Shown here: one piece after another, positions 6,875 to 64,000 of the stretch
Layout of the letters: each line of letters starts with the position of its first letter
Position numbering within the stretch: the first letter of the stretch is position 1
Origin: Escherichia phage bumzen
Strand: one strand, 5' to 3'
Sequence record: MN850635.1
Length of the DNA stretch: 64,000 nucleotides
Position numbers and translations under genes: made by a program
The notes under the pieces: model-generated
The model's database searches: none
Told to the model about the DNA's origin: nothing
Seen by the model: only the letters and a program-made list of their open reading frames with translations

Positions 6875-6967
6875 GGAAGATTAACCCTAAAAGGTAAGGG
6901 AGCAGTTTGCTAAACTGCCAGTAGCTGAGAAATCGGTGTACCAGTTCAAGTCTGGTATCTTCCTCCA
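6875..6967 (+). tRNA. tRNA-Ser (anticodon GCT), long variable arm
   Basis: Acceptor GGAAGAT/ATCTTCC; anticodon stem GCAGT/ACTGC, loop TTGCTAA; long variable arm; T-arm ACCAG-TTCAAGT-CTGGT; CCA encoded. Confidence 0.7.
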
Positions 6968-6972
6968 ATTTT

Positions 6973-7048
6973 GAATCCGTGACAGAAATGGATATGTGCC
7001 TGTCTGCAAAACAGGTTTATAAGGGTTCAAGTCCCTTCGGATTCTCCA
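6973..7048 (+). tRNA. tRNA-Cys (anticodon GCA)
   Basis: Acceptor GAATCCG/CGGATTC; anticodon stem CCTGT/ACAGG, loop CTGCAAA; U73; CCA encoded. Confidence 0.7.
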
Positions 7049-7085
7049 AGTTATTTTACTCTCTCTCAATTAAAATAATAATAAT

Positions 7086-7145
7086 GCCCTGCTATAAGTA
7101 TTCTTCCTTTCGCTACCGAAGAGTATTTTTAGACAGGGCTTTTTT
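7086..7145 (+). terminator. terminator-like hairpin with large loop at the end of the tRNA array
   Basis: GCCCTG (7086-7091) pairs with CAGGGC (7134-7139), followed by TTTTTT. Confidence 0.4.
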
Positions 7146-7210
7146 ACAGAGTTATACTTTATAGGAAGACTTATACAGTATGTCTCTGACGTACATTGTG
7201 GTTTCTCCTT

Positions 7211-7234
7211 GACGGTCTCCGTGCCGTCTTTTTT
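7211..7234 (+). terminator. rho-independent terminator
   Basis: GACGG-tctccgtg-CCGTC followed by TTTTTT. Confidence 0.6.
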
Positions 7235-7270
7235 AAGGGGAAACAAGATTAATTATTTGGAGAAAACATA

Positions 7271-7471
7271 ATGAGCGAGAACGTTTATAAAGAACTTTAT
7301 GAAGCTAACAAGAAGTTAGAGTTTATGCAGAATACTATCATGGCAATTGCAGATAGATTATCTGTAGCAACAGGTATTGATATTAAAGAAGCATCTATGG
7401 ATGCACTTCTTGATGCTGTTGATGCAAAGTTCGAAGTTAAGAAAGAAGAGACTGCTACAGACTCTGAATAA
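7271..7471 (+). CDS. hypothetical small protein upstream of terminase
   Basis: 66 aa ORF with RBS-like GGAGAAAA; helical and acidic. Confidence 0.45.
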   Translation: MSENVYKELYEANKKLEFMQNTIMAIADRLSVATGIDIKEASMDALLDAVDAKFEVKKEETATDSE

Positions 7472-7477
7472 TTCTAT

Positions 7478-9094
7478 TTGCGGAGGTGCTTAATGGACTT
7501 AAATGCTGTTAAGCAGAAGCGAGTGGAAGATGTTAGGAAAGTCCTAGCTGGAGAGTTGGGGCTTTCTGATGAAGTAAAAGAAATTATCAAATCATTCGGT
7601 AAAGACCCCTCTAAATTCCTTCCAACTCAAATTCTGACTTTATTAAGATACACACCAGACCAAGTTCGCCTTATCTTTAAATTGATGACTGATAAGAACT
7701 ATGTAGCCCCTCAGCCGGGTTCTCAAGAGGTCTTTTTAAATACTAATGCTGACTTGGTTCTCTATGGTGGTGCTGCTGGTGCTGGTAAAACTGCTGCATT
7801 GTTAATGGACTCTTTAAGGTTTATTGAAGACCCTAACTATAATGCTGTATATTTCCGTCGAAATACAACACAGTTACAAGGTGGTTTATGGCCTGCTGCA
7901 AAGAAACTATTTGGTAAGTTTGGTGGGGTTCCTCACGAGCAGAAAATGACTATCACATTCCCTTCTGGGGCGACTATCAAGTTTACCTACCTAGAACTTG
8001 AAAAGCACGCTGAAGGTCATCAGGGTATTGAATACTCAGCTATTTACTTTGACGAAGGTACACACTTCTCTGCTTCACAGATTTCATACCTACAAACCCG
8101 TCTACGTTCTGGTGCTGAAGGTGATTCATACATGAAGATTTCTATGAACCCAGACAGAGACCACTTTATTTACGATTGGGTAGAACCTTTCTTAGATGAA
8201 GAAGGTTATCCAGACCCTGAAAAGTGTGGTCGTATTCGTTGGTATGTAATGAATGATGGTGTGATGGTTTCTGATTGGGAGAGAGACAAGATTCTTGAAA
8301 TGTTCCCTCTTGAGATTCCTCAAACATACACCTTTATCTCTGGTACGATTGATGATAACCCAATCCTTGACTTCTTAGAACCTAAGTACCGTGGTAAGTT
8401 GGAAAACAACACTCCTGTAAACGTTGCAAGACTTCGTTTTGGTAACTGGAAGGCTCGTGCAGAAGGTTCAAACTATTGGCAAAGACAATGGTGTGAAATT
8501 GTTGATTCACTCCCAGAAGATGTATTTGATGTTAGAGCATGGGACTTAGCAGCAACTTTACCATCTGAGATTAACCCTAATCCGGACTGGACAGCAGGTG
8601 TTAAGATGGGTAAATCTAAAAAAGACGGTTGCTATTATATCATTGATGTAGTAAGATTTAGAGATAGACCCTCTGGAGTCGAAACACAAATTAATTTGAC
8701 TGCTGAAAGTGACGGTAAGCGAACTGGTATTTTTATCCCTCAAGACCCAGGCGCTGCTGGTAAATCCTACGCAACATCCCTCATCAGGAAACTTGCCGAG
8801 AAAGGCTATCGTGCAAGAGCTAAACCAACAAATAAAGATAAAGTTACCCGATTTGCGGGGTTTTCTGCTGCTTCTGAAGCTGGACTTGTAAAAGTTTTGA
8901 GAGGTAGTTGGAACGAAGCTTATTTCCAAGAGCTTGAAGGCTTTTGTGGTGATGGCAAAACTAAAGATGACCAAGTGGATGCTACCAGTGATGCTTTCAA
9001 CAGTCTTAACGAAGTTAAATTATTCAAGCCACCATCAATGGGTGCTCACACAGACTTAGTGAGAGGAAACCCATATGAGGGGCTTAGACGTTGA
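7478..9094 (+). CDS. terminase large subunit
   Basis: 538 aa; Walker A LYGGAAGAGKTAALL; sits immediately before the portal gene. Confidence 0.85.
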   Translation: MRRCLMDLNAVKQKRVEDVRKVLAGELGLSDEVKEIIKSFGKDPSKFLPTQILTLLRYTPDQVRLIFKLMTDKNYVAPQPGSQEVFLNTNADLVLYGGAAGAGKTAALLMDSLRFIEDPNYNAVYFRRNTTQLQGGLWPAAKKLFGKFGGVPHEQKMTITFPSGATIKFTYLELEKHAEGHQGIEYSAIYFDEGTHFSASQISYLQTRLRSGAEGDSYMKISMNPDRDHFIYDWVEPFLDEEGYPDPEKCGRIRWYVMNDGVMVSDWERDKILEMFPLEIPQTYTFISGTIDDNPILDFLEPKYRGKLENNTPVNVARLRFGNWKARAEGSNYWQRQWCEIVDSLPEDVFDVRAWDLAATLPSEINPNPDWTAGVKMGKSKKDGCYYIIDVVRFRDRPSGVETQINLTAESDGKRTGIFIPQDPGAAGKSYATSLIRKLAEKGYRARAKPTNKDKVTRFAGFSAASEAGLVKVLRGSWNEAYFQELEGFCGDGKTKDDQVDATSDAFNSLNEVKLFKPPSMGAHTDLVRGNPYEGLRR

Positions 9095-27908: not shown

Positions 27909-27928
27909 GGGGCTGTATAGCCCCTTTT
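27909..27928 (+). terminator. rho-independent terminator
   Basis: GGGGCT-gtat-AGCCCC followed by TTTT. Confidence 0.65.
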
Positions 27929-55883: not shown

Positions 55884-58028
55884 ATGAACAAAGTACAGAT
55901 TATTAAAAAGAATGGCTCACTTGAAGAACCTGATATCAAAAAAGTTTTAGCAGCAGTCACAAAGTCAGCTAACAGAGTTGGTTATAAAGAGCTTCCACCA
56001 GATGTTACTCAAGCTCTTGAGTCAGCATTTATGAGGATTCTGGTAAAGTCCACTAAGCAGAATAATTTGCTAATTTCGGTAAATGATATTCACAGTATTG
56101 TTGAGGGTGCTTTGGCAGAAGTCAATCACGAGATTTATGAGTCTTACTCAACATATAGAAATTACCGTAAAGAGGTTGCTCAAAATTGGGATGAGCTTTA
56201 CCAAAAGACTAGAGATACACTCTTCTTAGGTGACCGTGAAAATGCTAACTTTGACAGCAGTTTAATTTCTACAAAAGGCTCAATTATTCGTGGTTACTTG
56301 ACTAAAGAAATCTTTAAACAGTACCATTTAACACCAGAGGAACTTGAAGCCATTGAAAAAGGGTTTATCTACATCCATGATTTAAGAGACCTAATTTTTG
56401 GTGGTATCAACTGTTGCCTGTTTGACATCGGTAAAGTACTGAAAGGTGGCTTTGAAATGTCTGGTATCGAATACTGTGAACCAAAGTCTGTGCTGTCAGC
56501 CTTACAGGTTATTGGCGATGTAGTTCTTTCAGCAACTGCACAGCAATTTGGTGGCTTTACTTTAGCAGAGATTGATAAGGTACTTGTACCGTATGCTAAA
56601 AAATCTTTAGTGTACCACTCAGAGAAAGCTGAAGAGTACGGAATACCTAAAGAGCAACACTATAATTACGTAATGGAGCAATTACAGAATGAGTTAACAC
56701 AAGGTTTCCAATCTCTTGAAATGAAACTTAACACTGTTCCTTGCAGTCGCGGTGATTTTGCATTTACTACTCTGACATTTGGCCTGTTGGAACCAGATAT
56801 GCACAATGAAGATAACCGTCTTCAGTTTATGATTGCCAATACAATCCTTAATGTAAGGATGAACGGGCAAGGAAAAAGCAAAAAACCTGTTGTGTTTCCT
56901 AAACTTGTGTATATCTATGAAGAGACAAGACATAAACTTGATGTATGCCAAGCAAGGTTGTTTGAAAAAGCTATTGAGTGTTGCTCTAAAGCGATGTATC
57001 CAGATTTCTTAAGTGTATCTGGTCATGGTGCTGTAGCAGATGCTTTTAAGCGTTCTGGTAAGGTGATTTCACCGATGGGTTGCAGAGCTTTCTTATCTCC
57101 ATATCTTAACGAGAATGGAGAAGAGTTCTATGTTGGTCGTGCTAACATTGGTGCTGTATCTTTGAACTTGCCAATGATTTACCAGTATTCTAAAGAGAAT
57201 GGTTTAGATTTCTGGAAAGAGCTTGATAAGTACCTAGAGATGATTCGCAGCTTCCACAAGAAACGCTACGAAATGATTGCTAACATGCCAGCAAGCTCTA
57301 ACCCTCTTGCATTCACACAGGGTGGTCTGTACAAAGGGAATAAGAAACCTACTGACAAGGTTGGCTGGGATATCGTGAAGTCCTTCACAGCTTCTTTTGG
57401 GGTTACTGCGCTTGATGAGCTATCTGTTCTTGCTGAAGGTAAACGACTCCATGAAGTTGGAAGCTGTAGTTTTGCATATGATGTTCTGGCATACATTAAC
57501 ATGAAAACTGAAGAGTTTAAGAACGAAGATGGCTTCTTGTATGCGGTATATGGCACTCCAGCAGAATCACTTTGTGGAACTCAGTTAAAACAGTTCAGAG
57601 ATATGTTTGGCGTTATTAAAGGTGTCTCTGACAAGGAATACTTTACAAACAGTTTCCATATGAATGTTGCAGCAGACATCTCACCATTTGAGAAGCAGGA
57701 CTTAGAAGAGCCATTCTTCCATATCTGTAGAGGTGGTAGAATCCAGTATGTAAGGGTAGCTAACCCAGAAAACTTAACAGCACTTAAAAGTTGTATTACA
57801 AGAGGGATGTTGAAAGGTTTCTATCAGGGGCTTAACTTTGACTTAGCAATCTGTGAACATTGTGGTAACAGACCAAAGGCTGATGTTGAAGAATGTGAGG
57901 TTTGCCATTCACATGATATCTCTGTGATTAACAGGGTGTGCGGGTACTTGTCATTCACAAAAATTAAAGGTCAGTCTCGAATGAATGACGCTAAGATGGC
58001 AGAAATTAAGGATAGGGTTTCTATGTAA
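55884..58028 (+). CDS. nrdD: anaerobic ribonucleoside-triphosphate reductase
   Basis: 714 aa; C-terminal zinc site CEHCGN...CEVCHS and glycyl-radical motif RVCGYLS. Confidence 0.85.
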   Translation: MNKVQIIKKNGSLEEPDIKKVLAAVTKSANRVGYKELPPDVTQALESAFMRILVKSTKQNNLLISVNDIHSIVEGALAEVNHEIYESYSTYRNYRKEVAQNWDELYQKTRDTLFLGDRENANFDSSLISTKGSIIRGYLTKEIFKQYHLTPEELEAIEKGFIYIHDLRDLIFGGINCCLFDIGKVLKGGFEMSGIEYCEPKSVLSALQVIGDVVLSATAQQFGGFTLAEIDKVLVPYAKKSLVYHSEKAEEYGIPKEQHYNYVMEQLQNELTQGFQSLEMKLNTVPCSRGDFAFTTLTFGLLEPDMHNEDNRLQFMIANTILNVRMNGQGKSKKPVVFPKLVYIYEETRHKLDVCQARLFEKAIECCSKAMYPDFLSVSGHGAVADAFKRSGKVISPMGCRAFLSPYLNENGEEFYVGRANIGAVSLNLPMIYQYSKENGLDFWKELDKYLEMIRSFHKKRYEMIANMPASSNPLAFTQGGLYKGNKKPTDKVGWDIVKSFTASFGVTALDELSVLAEGKRLHEVGSCSFAYDVLAYINMKTEEFKNEDGFLYAVYGTPAESLCGTQLKQFRDMFGVIKGVSDKEYFTNSFHMNVAADISPFEKQDLEEPFFHICRGGRIQYVRVANPENLTALKSCITRGMLKGFYQGLNFDLAICEHCGNRPKADVEECEVCHSHDISVINRVCGYLSFTKIKGQSRMNDAKMAEIKDRVSM

Positions 58029-59326: not shown

Positions 59327-59812
59327 ATGAATTACATGGAGATTCGACCATTTGATACAGCTAATGGTGAAGGGGTTCGTGTAAGCCTCTTCGTAGCTGG
59401 CTGTAAACATCACTGTGAAGGCTGCTTTAACAGGGAGTCTTGGAAGTTTAATGCTGGTAAAGTGTTCACTTATGCAAACCTCTACGGCATCATTAAGTTA
59501 ATGGATGATGATGCTGTCAGTGGGCTGTCAATACTTGGTGGAGAACCTCTGGATGATAGAAATATTCAAGAGGTTACCAACATATGCAAACGTATTAAAA
59601 CCGTTTACCCAGAAAAATCTATCTGGCTCTGGACAGGTTTTCAGTTACACGAAAAAATTCACCTAGATGTGATGAAATATGTTGACGTGGTGATTGATGG
59701 TAAGTATGATTCATCTAAACCAACAGTTAAACCATATCGTGGTTCTGATAACCAAAACCTCTGGAGAAAAGAGTATGGATGGCAAGGCGATTGTCAATGG
59801 CGAGCAGAGTGA
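59327..59812 (+). CDS. nrdG: anaerobic ribonucleotide reductase activating protein (radical SAM)
   Basis: 161 aa; Cys cluster CKHHCEGC near the N-terminus; close to nrdD. Confidence 0.75.
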   Translation: MNYMEIRPFDTANGEGVRVSLFVAGCKHHCEGCFNRESWKFNAGKVFTYANLYGIIKLMDDDAVSGLSILGGEPLDDRNIQEVTNICKRIKTVYPEKSIWLWTGFQLHEKIHLDVMKYVDVVIDGKYDSSKPTVKPYRGSDNQNLWRKEYGWQGDCQWRAE

Positions 59813-60705: not shown

Positions 60706-61221
60706 ATGTATCTGTCAAACCTAAAACGTTCTGCTGCAATGTCAGTGCTAAGACTCAGCTTTGAGGAACGTCAAGAGTTCATTGACTCCCACCAATACGA
60801 CCCTTCTAACTCCAATCACATGATTCTCTGGAATCGTGGCAGTACTCGTGAAAGAGCACTATTCCGTTACTACCCGCATTACACCATAGATAACCTGTAT
60901 GAATGTTTTGTTGTGAAGAACACCATTACAGTACTTAATAGACTTTGCAGATACACAGGTAGTCAATCCTTCACATTAGGCCACCACAAACCTGTTACAA
61001 AGGGTGGTGAGCATCACTGTGCAAACTGGTTTATCCAGACTAAACTTGATAATCAGAATCAAGGAGATAGCCTTCTAAGCACCCCTAAGATGACCTATGA
61101 AGAGCAAGAGAAATATATCAAAAATAATATGCCAGAGGTGCTTGACAACAACTATACAGATTTGGCAATATCTCTCCTGTTGAAGTTCGAGACAGTTTAT
61201 AGGGCAACTTACAATGGCTAA
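60706..61221 (+). CDS. HNH nuclease-like protein
   Basis: 171 aa; LGHHKPVTKGGEHHCANW fits an HNH-type arrangement. Confidence 0.4.
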   Translation: MYLSNLKRSAAMSVLRLSFEERQEFIDSHQYDPSNSNHMILWNRGSTRERALFRYYPHYTIDNLYECFVVKNTITVLNRLCRYTGSQSFTLGHHKPVTKGGEHHCANWFIQTKLDNQNQGDSLLSTPKMTYEEQEKYIKNNMPEVLDNNYTDLAISLLLKFETVYRATYNG

Positions 61222-61492
61222 AGAGAAGTGGGAAATTTTACCATTAGTGAGTGAAGGTGGTAATGGTTGTGAGATGTACATGATACGTGGTCATGTTCCA
61301 GAACCAATTGCACTTGAGATGGTAAACAATTTTACAGATGGCTCTTACAAAGATTTAGGAGAGCCAACTATAAAGCATCAATGGGTCAAACCTGTACCAG
61401 ACAGCACAGGTAACTGTAGTGTACTTTATCACGTTGTAGACCCTGCAAAATGCAAATCTGCAATGGCAGTAACAAACATAACCTTTGATTGA
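61214..61492 (+). CDS. hypothetical protein
   Basis: 92 aa ORF. Confidence 0.35.
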   Translation: MAKEKWEILPLVSEGGNGCEMYMIRGHVPEPIALEMVNNFTDGSYKDLGEPTIKHQWVKPVPDSTGNCSVLYHVVDPAKCKSAMAVTNITFD

Positions 61493-62387
61493 GAGAGAGA
61501 AAACTATGAAAACTGTTATTGAAGTCGTTGTCACCGCACAAGAGAAATTCTTCCACACAGAAAAATTTAATATCATCCAATTCCCATCTGGAGAAATTGG
61601 TGGAAACTTCTCTGAAGATTTTGTTAAGTTTACTGAGCGTAATGCTGGTAAGATTGACAATGTTATACTTACTGTGCAGGGATATGATAAAGATACACTG
61701 TTTGCATTAGCTTTGGCTAAGGATGCCGTTGACAGTCTTGTTCCACATAAATCAGCGATGAAAACCGTTGTTTTCGGGTTCTTACCGAATGCTCGATATG
61801 ACCGACATATGTTCAAAGGTGATTCAGCAGCACTGAAAGCTTTTGCCAACCTCGTTAATGCAATGGGCTTTGATGCAGTATGTGCTCTTGACCCTCACAG
61901 CAATGTTGCAGAAAACTTATTTAAGTGCTTTCAGGGCATGAAGCAAAAAGATGTAGCAGCACACTTTGCAAGTGACCCACGCATTGATTTCTTGGTAGCC
62001 CCAGATGCAGGTGCAGCTAAGAAGACTGAAGAGACTGCTAAAGAGGTGGATAAACCATATATCACAATGTCTAAAATGCGTAACCTTAAGACTGGTGAAA
62101 TTACTGGTATGCGAATCCTTGATGATGTTGATTTGACCGATAAAACTGTTATGATTCTCGACGATATCTGTGATGGCGGTCGAACCTTCATAGAAGCAGC
62201 TAAACATCTTCGTGAAGCAGGTGCAAAACGTGTGGAACTCTATGTAACTCATGGCATTTTCTCTAAAGGTGTTGAAAGCTTACTTGACAATGGTATTGAC
62301 CATATCTACACTACAAACACTTTAGGTGAAGCTAAAGACCGTGGCTTAACACATTATGGCCAAGTTACTGTAGCAACCATTGATTGA
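61485..62387 (+). CDS. prs: ribose-phosphate pyrophosphokinase (PRPP synthetase)
   Basis: 300 aa; PRPP-binding motif VMILDDICDGGRT; true start may be the internal MKTVIEV. Confidence 0.75.
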   Translation: MIEREKTMKTVIEVVVTAQEKFFHTEKFNIIQFPSGEIGGNFSEDFVKFTERNAGKIDNVILTVQGYDKDTLFALALAKDAVDSLVPHKSAMKTVVFGFLPNARYDRHMFKGDSAALKAFANLVNAMGFDAVCALDPHSNVAENLFKCFQGMKQKDVAAHFASDPRIDFLVAPDAGAAKKTEETAKEVDKPYITMSKMRNLKTGEITGMRILDDVDLTDKTVMILDDICDGGRTFIEAAKHLREAGAKRVELYVTHGIFSKGVESLLDNGIDHIYTTNTLGEAKDRGLTHYGQVTVATID

Positions 62388-62396
62388 AACTTTATA

Positions 62397-62417
62397 GGGG
62401 CTTGAAAGCCCCATTTT
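62397..62417 (+). terminator. terminator-like hairpin
   Basis: GGGGCT-tgaa-AGCCCC followed by ATTTT. Confidence 0.55.
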
Positions 62418-62432
62418 GAGAGAGATTAAAAG

Positions 62433-64000
62433 ATGACTAAATCACTTTATGCAGTACCAGCAGGTTTAAACGCAGATGCTTACAAATCTGGTCATGTTTA
62501 CCAGTATCCTAGTGCAACAGATTACTTGATGTTCAACCTGACACCACGTAGCGACAAATGGTTTAACAGCCCTTTAGCAATTGATGGTGTAGTGGCTTTT
62601 GGTATTCAACGTTTTGTTAAAGATTACTTGATAGACCACTGGAACGCCACTTTCTTTGAACGTGATAAAAAAGAAGCAATTGACGAAATCTTAGAAGTTA
62701 TGAATGGTGTTCTGGGGAAAGATGCTATCGGTCGAGAGCATTGGGAAGCACTTCACGACTTAGGTTATCTACCAGTTGAAGTGTACGCTGTAGAAGAAGG
62801 CACAGTTGTCCCGATGCGTGTCCCAATGATTGTCTTCCAGAACACTGTTTCAGGTTTCCATTGGGTAGCAGGTTATCTAGAAGACGCTTTCTCTGCTGAG
62901 ATTTGGAAGGCTTGCACCATTGCAACTATTGCATTGCACTACAAACGTATCTGTAAGAAGTGGGCTGACCTCACTTGCGACAACGACTTGCATTTACCTT
63001 ATCAGTGCCATGACTTTGCTATGCGTGGTATGTCCGGCTTTACTGATGACGCATTCAACGCTGTAGGACACTTAACCAGCTTTAAAGGGACTGATAGCTT
63101 CCCTGCTGTATACACGGCTAAACGTATCTATGGGCAGACCTATCCAATCTCTGATATTGGAAGCTCTGTACCAGCCACTGAACACTCTGTAATGTGTGCA
63201 AACATTGCTTGGGAAGGTGGTAACGAGTTGGTTGAAGAAGAAAGACGATTTAAAGGTGAGTTACAAACCTTCCGTCGTTTCTTAACAGAAACTTACCCAA
63301 CTGGTATTGCAAGTATTGTTTCAGACACTTATAACTTCTGGAGAACTGTGTCAGAAATCTTACCAGCACTTCGTAAAGAAATTATGGAACGTGATGGTAA
63401 GCTGGTAATTCGCCCTGACTCTGGAGACCCTGTACATATTGTCACAGGCTATAAAGCAATCCACTTAGAGTGTGCTAAGAAGGCTTATTATGAGCACCTA
63501 AGCAAGCTGGAAGCTAGTGACACAATGTTGAATGCTGTTCTGAACATGAAGCTTGAAAACATCAACTATGGTATTGCTGGATGGCTACTGTCAGAAGGCT
63601 ACGAAATGGTTGTTGACAAAGAAGACTTTGAAGTTGCTGATACAGTGATGTTGAAAAATGCTTATATGGTTGGCTCTGCAAACGTTGTAACACGTCCTGT
63701 AGCAGAGATTGATGGAGCTATTAAGACCCTGTACAACATCTTCGGAGGGACTATTAACTCTAAAGGGTTTAAGGTACTGGATGAGCACATCGGCCTTATC
63801 TATGGTGACTCTATCACGCTGGAACGTGCAAACGAAATCCTGAAGCGTCTGTATGAAATGGGTTTTGCAAGCTCTAACGTAGTGTTTGGTGTAGGCTCTT
63901 ACACTTACCAGTACATGACTCGTGACACCTTTGCATTTGCTGTCAAAGCAACTCTTGCAAGCATTGGTGGTAAAGAGATTATGCTTGCAAAAGACCCTAA
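62433..64000 (+). CDS. nadV: nicotinamide phosphoribosyltransferase (3'-truncated at window end)
   Basis: ATG 62433 after GAGAGAT; frame open to the window end (over 520 codons); N-terminal MTKSLYAVPAGLNADAYKSGHVYQYP and FAMRGMSG resemble NadV/NAMPT as I recall it. Confidence 0.7.
   Translation, partial: MTKSLYAVPAGLNADAYKSGHVYQYPSATDYLMFNLTPRSDKWFNSPLAIDGVVAFGIQRFVKDYLIDHWNATFFERDKKEAIDEILEVMNGVLGKDAIGREHWEALHDLGYLPVEVYAVEEGTVVPMRVPMIVFQNTVSGFHWVAGYLEDAFSAEIWKACTIATIALHYKRICKKWADLTCDNDLHLPYQCHDFAMRGMSGFTDDAFNAVGHLTSFKGTDSFPAVYTAKRIYGQTYPISDIGSSVPATEHSVMCANIAWEGGNELVEEERRFKGELQTFRRFLTETYPTGIASIVSDTYNFWRTVSEILPALRKEIMERDGKLVIRPDSGDPVHIVTGYKAIHLECAKKAYYEHLSKLEASDTMLNAVLNMKLENINYGIAGWLLSEGYEMVVDKEDFEVADTVMLKNAYMVGSANVVTRPVAEIDGAIKTLYNIFGGTINSKGFKVLDEHIGLIYGDSITLERANEILKRLYEMGFASSNVVFGVGSYTYQYMTRDTFAFAVKATLASIGGKEIMLAKDP

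Follow-up and report, generated by a model that had tools for sequence, protein, structure and literature searches.

Genes 79 and 80 of phage Bas63 (Escherichia phage JohannRWettstein of the BASEL collection) were initially expected by Osterman et al., on the basis of Pfam, to encode a Prs that makes phosphoribosyl pyrophosphate (PRPP) and a Nampt that forms nicotinamide mononucleotide (NMN), but this expectation was disproved for the operon (bioRxiv 10.1101/2024.02.11.579819). Bas63 without these genes is ~20-fold more sensitive to the defence system SIR2-HerA and its nicotinamide adenine dinucleotide (NAD+) drops further, the wild type partly restores NAD+, and ADP-ribose (ADPR) pyrophosphate (ADPR-PP, m/z 720.010) accumulates during Bas63 infection only if the operon and SIR2-HerA are both present (bioRxiv 10.1101/2024.02.11.579819). 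Work with purified proteins of Bacillus phage SPbetaL1 (SpbetaL1) revealed that Adps converts ADPR and ATP to ADPR-PP and yields no product in the canonical Prs assay, and that Namat converts ADPR-PP and nicotinamide to NAD+, favouring ADPR-PP over PRPP (bioRxiv 10.1101/2024.02.11.579819). This NAD+ reconstitution pathway 1 (NARP1) is independent of host PncC and NadR and does not need an NMN adenylyltransferase (NMNAT); the SpbetaL1 and Fado versions counter type I Thoeris, DSR1/2 and SEFIR, and Adps is linked to Namat in 97% of the Adps clade (bioRxiv 10.1101/2024.02.11.579819). Here, we compare with these systems a gene pair, adps and namat, at the end of a 64,000-nt stretch of Escherichia phage bumzen (MN850635.1; hereafter the window, in whose positions all coordinates are given unless another record is named). 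The second gene is cut by the end of the stretch. We conclude with high confidence that the pair is the NARP1 operon of Felixounavirus.

The phage of the window is a member of Felixounavirus (Felix O1-like phages). Over positions 61200-64000, its nucleotide identity is ~100% to Shigella phage JK55 and 95.1% to Bas63, the latter being one of many Felixounavirus genomes that are 95-96% identical to the window in this region. The pair is an already known system, near-identical to the published operon, and its phage origin, proposed in an earlier reading of the letters without database searches (the sequence-only reading), is borne out by these matches. The window and Bas63 have the genus, the gene order and the gene neighbours in common (NrdD and NrdG upstream; small open reading frames (ORFs) and rIIA/rIIB downstream), as well as the same hairpin between the two genes and the same 593-aa Namat including two insertions. 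An additional small ORF downstream in Bas63, bas63_0081, is missing in JK55, and no functional difference is apparent. Compared with bas63_0079, Adps has 12 substitutions (281/293; 96% amino acid identity). Namat, compared by means of the full-length JK55 sequence, differs from bas63_0080 by 8 substitutions (585/593; 99%), and K396R in Namat was the single coding difference noticed between the window and JK55. By inference, the window proteins would carry out the same reactions as their Bas63 orthologues and their SpbetaL1 homologues, the latter being about 30-45% identical.

The prs-family gene with the motif ILDDICDGGRT that had been recognized from the letters is present, with family matches far beyond chance. 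Adps matches the Pfam families Pribosyltran (PF00156) and Pribosyl_synth (PF14572) and PHROG 619 'ribose-phosphate pyrophosphokinase' (E=1.5e-97), and it passes the cutoff of NCBIfam TIGR01251, a broad subfamily model (136.5 bits, cutoff 113). It belongs to the same PRTase-type fold family as class I Prs of E. coli and B. subtilis and keeps their DD..D.GGT loop and RxDR motif; D219, D220, G225 and T227 are invariant in an alignment of Adps proteins with E. coli Prs. The assignment of Adps as a canonical class I PRPP synthetase was nevertheless rejected, as none of the equivalog-level Prs models of NCBIfam was passed, cutoffs being missed by far (47-112 bits against cutoffs of 296-536, e.g. 112 versus 296), and the N-terminal Prs domain (Pribosyltran_N) was not matched in a Pfam scan of the protein. 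Adps of the window shares ~29-33% of its residues with SpbetaL1 Adps, but 24% with E. coli Prs. Near-identity to bas63_0079, the founding member of the phage Adps clade, places the window protein putatively in that clade and apart from cellular Prs. Class I Prs uses ribose-5-phosphate, whereas the substrate of the Adps clade is, according to the literature, ADPR. Published residues were mapped from the SpbetaL1 Adps and Namat sequences onto the window proteins by alignment. Lys190, thus mapped to active-site K162 of SpbetaL1 Adps, is invariant across the window, Bas63 and SpbetaL1 proteins, and the K162A exchange in SpbetaL1 abolishes NAD+ production (bioRxiv 10.1101/2024.02.11.579819).

The downstream ORF, described in the sequence-only reading as NadV/NAMPT-like and running off the window, is indeed open over 522 codons from its ATG to position 64000 without a stop; relatives encode a complete protein of 593 aa. 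It matches NCBIfam PRK09198 (445 bits, cutoff 405, E=2.4e-133) and PHROG 448 'nicotinamide phosphoribosyl transferase' (E=3e-184), and a Pfam NAPRTase match is accompanied by a weak NAMPT_N match. Its closest sequence match in the PDB is SpbetaL1 Namat (9w5w/9w5x, E=5.6e-128), followed by H. ducreyi NadV (HdNadV; 8.4e-104) and Xcc Nampt (1.9e-52). A NAMPT fold, which the sequence-only reading required of this ORF, is recovered in an AlphaFold prediction (pLDDT 93.2) for a full-length homologue with 99% identity, and a fold search with this prediction ranked the crystal structures of Namat (9w5x, 9w5w; TM-score on the target 0.95) at the top, ahead of HdNadV and human NAMPT.

Features that divide Namat from Nampt have been set out in a recent structural paper (PMC12774641, 2026) and centre here on the selectivity clamp, whose two parts are a loop, SCL, and a helix, SCH. 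Where the diagnostic SCL residue is Lys, stacking on the adenine falls to the residue that follows it, with Bas63 as an example of this Lys type (PMC12774641). The SCL of the window Namat, in which K42-W43 is aligned to R40 of SpbetaL1 and is identical in Bas63, is accordingly of a form predicted to supply the adenine-stacking residue. The SCH signature carries both of its aromatic residues, which are missing from bona fide Nampts (GGALLQKVDRD in Xcc, GAQTYQRNTRD in HdNadV); its phi3 position is Met in the window Namat and in Bas63, where 'mainly Asn/Val' is given in PMC12774641. Mapping further places the RPD motif of Namat on the ribose-binding residues R306 and D308 of SpbetaL1, and activity of the SpbetaL1 enzyme is abolished by R306G and R306A (bioRxiv 10.1101/2024.02.11.579819; PMC12774641). 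The core of the enzyme is kept as well (D15, Y17, F195, R198, D221, H251, R327, D329, G458 and D459). Within this core, His251 is invariant in 43 homologues and is presumably the catalytic histidine of the Nampt-type core. A catalytic histidine common to Namat and Nampt is described, its position being unstated (PMC12774641).

Taken over to the window, the pathway would start with a SIR2-, TIR- or SEFIR-type defence that splits host NAD+ into ADPR and nicotinamide. Adps, despite its Prs-like sequence, would then transfer pyrophosphate from ATP to the terminal ribose of ADPR, and the Nampt-like Namat would let nicotinamide replace the pyrophosphate of the resulting ADPR-PP, which would regenerate NAD+ in one step. 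Namat would read the adenine of ADPR-PP through the clamp of SCL and SCH, and both an NMN intermediate and an NMNAT would be unnecessary. The tie to NAD+-depleting defence that was suspected from the letters finds support in the Bas63 orthologues 79-80, which protect against SIR2-HerA (bioRxiv 10.1101/2024.02.11.579819). The more distant SpbetaL1 system has the two-gene order, the Adps lysine, the Namat core and the SCH signature in common with the window, at ~37-48% Namat identity. It differs in a shorter Namat (491 aa) with R40 in the SCL in place of K42-W43 and with neither insertion, and its adps and namat abut without a gap, so that there is no spacer hairpin. The order adps then namat was found in all of 13 IMG/VR loci retrieved with the Adps alignment, with the genes adjoining or 1-2 ORFs between them, down to 35% Adps identity.

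Two other explanations of the pair have to be weighed against NARP1. In the sequence-only reading, the phage was thought to make NMN from nicotinamide and PRPP, and an NMNAT/Nudix gene was expected just past the window. A genuine PRPP synthetase would thus feed a genuine NadV/Nampt, and either a phage NMNAT beyond the window, as in NAD+ reconstitution pathway 2 (NARP2) of KVP40 type, or host NadR/NadD would complete NAD+. Such a route would agree with the names in Pfam, NCBIfam and PHROG, which read Prs and Nampt, with the PRPP-to-NMN activity that Namat homologues retain in vitro, and with the use of Nampt plus Nmnat by KVP40-type phages. However, SpbetaL1 Adps forms no product in the Prs assay, ADPR-PP accumulates with the Bas63 orthologues, the SpbetaL1 homologues proceed via ADPR-PP to NAD+, and the Namat-specific adenine clamp is present in the window. 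The expected NMNAT also failed to appear in the relatives. Past position 64000, JK55 continues with the last 71 namat codons and small hypothetical ORFs of 111 and 58 aa, after which its record stops, rIIA/rIIB being located where that record begins, and Bas63 continues past the equivalent position with the namat end, three small ORFs and then rIIA/rIIB. A Pfam scan of the small ORFs downstream of namat in both phages gave no informative match. NMNAT motifs (GxFxPxHxGH, ISSTxxR) and the Nudix box were not found by a six-frame regular-expression search of the window, and phmmer searches with E. coli NadR and NadD revealed no NMNAT homologue (best E=1.3) among ORF fragments of at least 40 aa from the window, two JK55 loci (L001 and L002; ~18.6 kb) and Bas63 minus a 3.4-kb nrdB/nrdD stretch. 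Among the annotated genes of the JK55 loci and Bas63, nothing is named as NMNAT-like. NARP2 of the Vibrio phage KVP40, composed of NadV/Nampt and NatV/Nmnat, has in common with the window that NAD+ is restored against NAD+-depleting defences by a protein of Nampt fold, but it leads from PRPP to NMN, needs Nmnat and has no adjacent Adps, whereas the window has an adjacent Adps, the Namat clamp and no detectable Nmnat. The Nampts of NARP2 make up a clade of their own and lack a neighbouring Adps; Nmnat accompanies 94% of them, and a phage with both pathways was not found (bioRxiv 10.1101/2024.02.11.579819). Membership of the window pair in NARP2 was therefore rejected, as no Nmnat was detected in the sequences searched, Adps is adjacent, and sequence and fold are nearer to Namat than to HdNadV or Xcc Nampt. 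Altogether we regard NMN synthesis by a genuine Prs and Nampt as very improbable.

An even more improbable proposal is that the pair is a general booster of nucleotide metabolism, unrelated to defence, that raises the PRPP supply to purine and pyrimidine synthesis during infection. Its position is suggestive, since the pair ends a co-directional cluster of nucleotide metabolism genes (NrdD and NrdG; in the Bas63 annotation also nrdA/B, thymidylate synthase and dihydrofolate reductase). Yet the deletion phenotype of Bas63 was seen on SIR2-HerA cells and ADPR-PP appeared only with that system present. Adps is also strictly tied to Namat, both in the published clade (97%) and in the loci analysed here (13/13), a link that a plain PRPP supplier does not need. 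NARP1, which we favour over both proposals, has weaknesses of its own. The Bas63 protein purified poorly and the enzymology rests on the SpbetaL1 homologues (bioRxiv 10.1101/2024.02.11.579819), and Namat of Felixounavirus bears insertions of ~15 and ~88 aa that are missing from the crystallised enzyme. Furthermore, when ADPR-PP is lacking in vitro, SpbetaL1 Namat turns PRPP into NMN (bioRxiv 10.1101/2024.02.11.579819; PMC12774641), and a minor NMN side route via host NadR is therefore possible. Finally, the NMNAT search consisted of the two E. coli phmmer queries and of annotation names, which a very divergent enzyme among the hypothetical proteins could escape.

Table 1. Positions of the adps-namat pair, its functional sites and other features in the 64,000-nt window
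Feature	Position	Strand	Remark
adps, ADP-ribose pyrophosphate synthetase (very probable), Prs family, 293 aa	61506..62387	+	TGA 62385-62387 is the stop
Lys190 codon of Adps	62073..62075	+	equals SpbetaL1 Adps active-site K162; alignment mapping
ILDDICDGGRT of Adps, phosphoribosyl-binding loop motif, aa 217-227	62154..62186	+	read from sequence
Hairpin GGGGCU-UGAA-AGCCCC, then AUUUUG	62397..62412	+	between adps and namat
GAGAGAGA, ribosome-binding-site-like	62418..62425	+	7 nt 5' of namat ATG; read from sequence, putative function
namat, nicotinamide ADP-ribose transferase (very probable), Nampt family	62433..64000	+	codons 1-522 of 593; runs off window end
SCL residues K42-W43 of Namat	62556..62561	+	aligned to SpbetaL1 R40; identical in Bas63
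His251 codon of Namat, in ATEHSVM	63183..63185	+	invariant in 43 homologues
R327-P328-D329 (RPD) of Namat	63411..63419	+	equals ribose-binding SpbetaL1 R306/D308; alignment mapping
~88-aa inserted alpha/beta mini-domain of Namat, aa 340-427	63450..63713	+
SCH signature GSYTYQYMTRD of Namat, aa 488-498	63894..63926	+	Y490 and Y494 present
NrdD gene	55884-58028		upstream of pair
NrdG gene	59327-59812		upstream of pair
92-aa ORF	61214-61492		upstream of adps; stop 61490-61492
Twin hairpin GGGGCU-N4-AGCCCC, then UUUU	27909-27924		between two tail-fibre genes
One-mismatch copy of hairpin stem	2445-2460		pattern match

The two Namat insertions, ~15 aa (258-272) and ~88 aa (340-427) in length, are present in neither SpbetaL1 Namat, HdNadV nor human NAMPT. 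The larger one is a mini-domain with a confident structure prediction that is conserved within a clade of 590-610-aa phage Namats, and a search of solved structures with it returned no fold match. Namat of a distant locus (L018; 587 aa) has an insertion at the same site with an unrelated sequence. NARP1 is known in two extended versions that have the Adps/Namat core in common with the window, namely NARP1-AP of Vibrio phage Gary (Adps, the Macro-domain phosphatase Adpp and Namat) and the RyDEP-extended NARP1 of mycobacteriophage DyoEdafos, with a RyR-domain glycosidase. No such addition stands beside the pair, as there is no gene between adps and namat and the neighbouring ORFs have no Macro or RyR match in Pfam. 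The only Macro-domain protein found in the relatives Bas63 and JK55, a 'putative phosphatase' of 261 aa (bas63_0095), is encoded ~8 kb past the window end (L005:7879-8664; equivalent to JK55 record 6906-7691). It matches Macro (PF01661) with E=1e-7 and has weak, OARD1/TARG1-like matches in the PDB; its family (T4 Tk.4-like) occurs in 2849 phage records, some of them beside T4-type genes and not NARP1. By analogy with Adpp of NARP1-AP, a protein of this type might act in trans on ADPR derivatives to the benefit of NARP1. It is tempting to propose that the mini-domain adds a function beyond that of the SpbetaL1 enzyme, such as regulation, escape from an inhibitor of the host, or docking of Adps to channel the substrate, or that the Macro-domain protein acts in trans as an ADPR-1''-phosphate phosphatase, but we consider this rather unlikely. 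If true, a trans-acting Macro-domain phosphatase would provide NARP1-AP-like resistance to aRES.

The spacer between the adps stop and the namat ATG is 45 nt long and contains the terminator-like hairpin that the sequence-only reading had placed after prs. Folding of the spacer (51 nt folded) gave -12.6 kcal/mol with z=-3.5, and an equal fold was obtained in 0 of 200 shuffles. A scan for consensus terminators did not call the hairpin because its tail holds only 4 U. The stem is kept in 9 of the 13 related loci with differing loops (UGAA, UCAA, UGAC, UAAA, UACA, UUUA, GAAA), and a further 2 have an altered stem that still pairs (AUGGG/CCCAU). Preservation of the stem next to a variable loop, together with the rebuilt stem, argues that selection acts on the structure. 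Hairpins of the type GGGGCU-N4-AGCCCC followed by a short U run were matched three times in the window (Table 1), one of them with one mismatch, where 0.01 would be expected by chance. Such hairpins seem to recur as intercistronic elements in this phage. Putatively, it may serve as a weak or leaky terminator or as an RNA-stability element. In two Felixounavirus loci (L012:5891-6382 and the same position in L014), an ORF for a 163-aa HNH/AP2-like homing endonuclease is found between adps and namat in place of the hairpin. The ribosome-binding-site-like motif GAGAGAGA of the spacer recurs 5' of adps at ~61491-61499. The mechanical ORF call for adps is longer (61485-62387, with a TTG start), but ATG 61506 is likely the true start, because it is preceded by GAGAGAGAG, lies 14 nt past the stop of the upstream ORF, and equals the annotated start in JK55 and Bas63.

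Felixounavirus Adps proteins (L007-L017) fall into two allelic classes with 94-97% and 77-81% amino acid identity to the window. Namat beside both classes is 96-98% identical to the window, with the exception of L017 (76%). Two Adps classes next to a near-constant Namat suggest recombination, or a mosaic boundary, within the operon. Mosaicism is also apparent at larger scale. Identity to JK55 is ~100% over the final 2.8 kb, but only ~96% over the ~6 kb before, and the top match over the final 24 kb of the window is phage garuso (98.4%). Because the top match changes between garuso over the final 24 kb and JK55 over 61200-64000, the window is, as judged from these matches, that of a mosaic Felix O1-like phage. 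Besides the genes for NrdD and NrdG, small ORFs without known function lie 5' of the pair. Gene content around the pair varies in distant loci. In one NARP1-like locus of this kind (L019:4262-9319), adps is preceded by a gene for a PncA-like isochorismatase and separated from namat by an RtcB-like ORF and a small membrane ORF, the SCH motif of Namat is interrupted by a long insert, and a NadE-like NAD synthetase is encoded downstream of namat; this locus may represent a different or extended NAD pathway. In another (L018:4462-8147), a metallophosphoesterase-like ORF precedes adps, and an ORF of 212 aa, whose N-terminus resembles a signal peptide, separates adps from namat.

NARP1 lets a virus restore a metabolite lost to host immunity, by means of two reactions that were unknown before 2024. 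The pathway was discovered in Felixounavirus, on an operon whose DNA is 95% identical to that of the window. As the operon has already been described in the same genus, the value of our finding is corrective. The homology-based names PRPP synthetase and nicotinamide phosphoribosyltransferase mislead to an NMN salvage that needs NMNAT, and Adps and Namat of NARP1 are the apt annotation. The phage is predicted to tolerate NAD+-depleting systems of the SIR2, TIR and SEFIR types, though probably not aRES-type cleavage, and such tolerance may bear on the choice of Felix O1-like phages for therapy and biocontrol.

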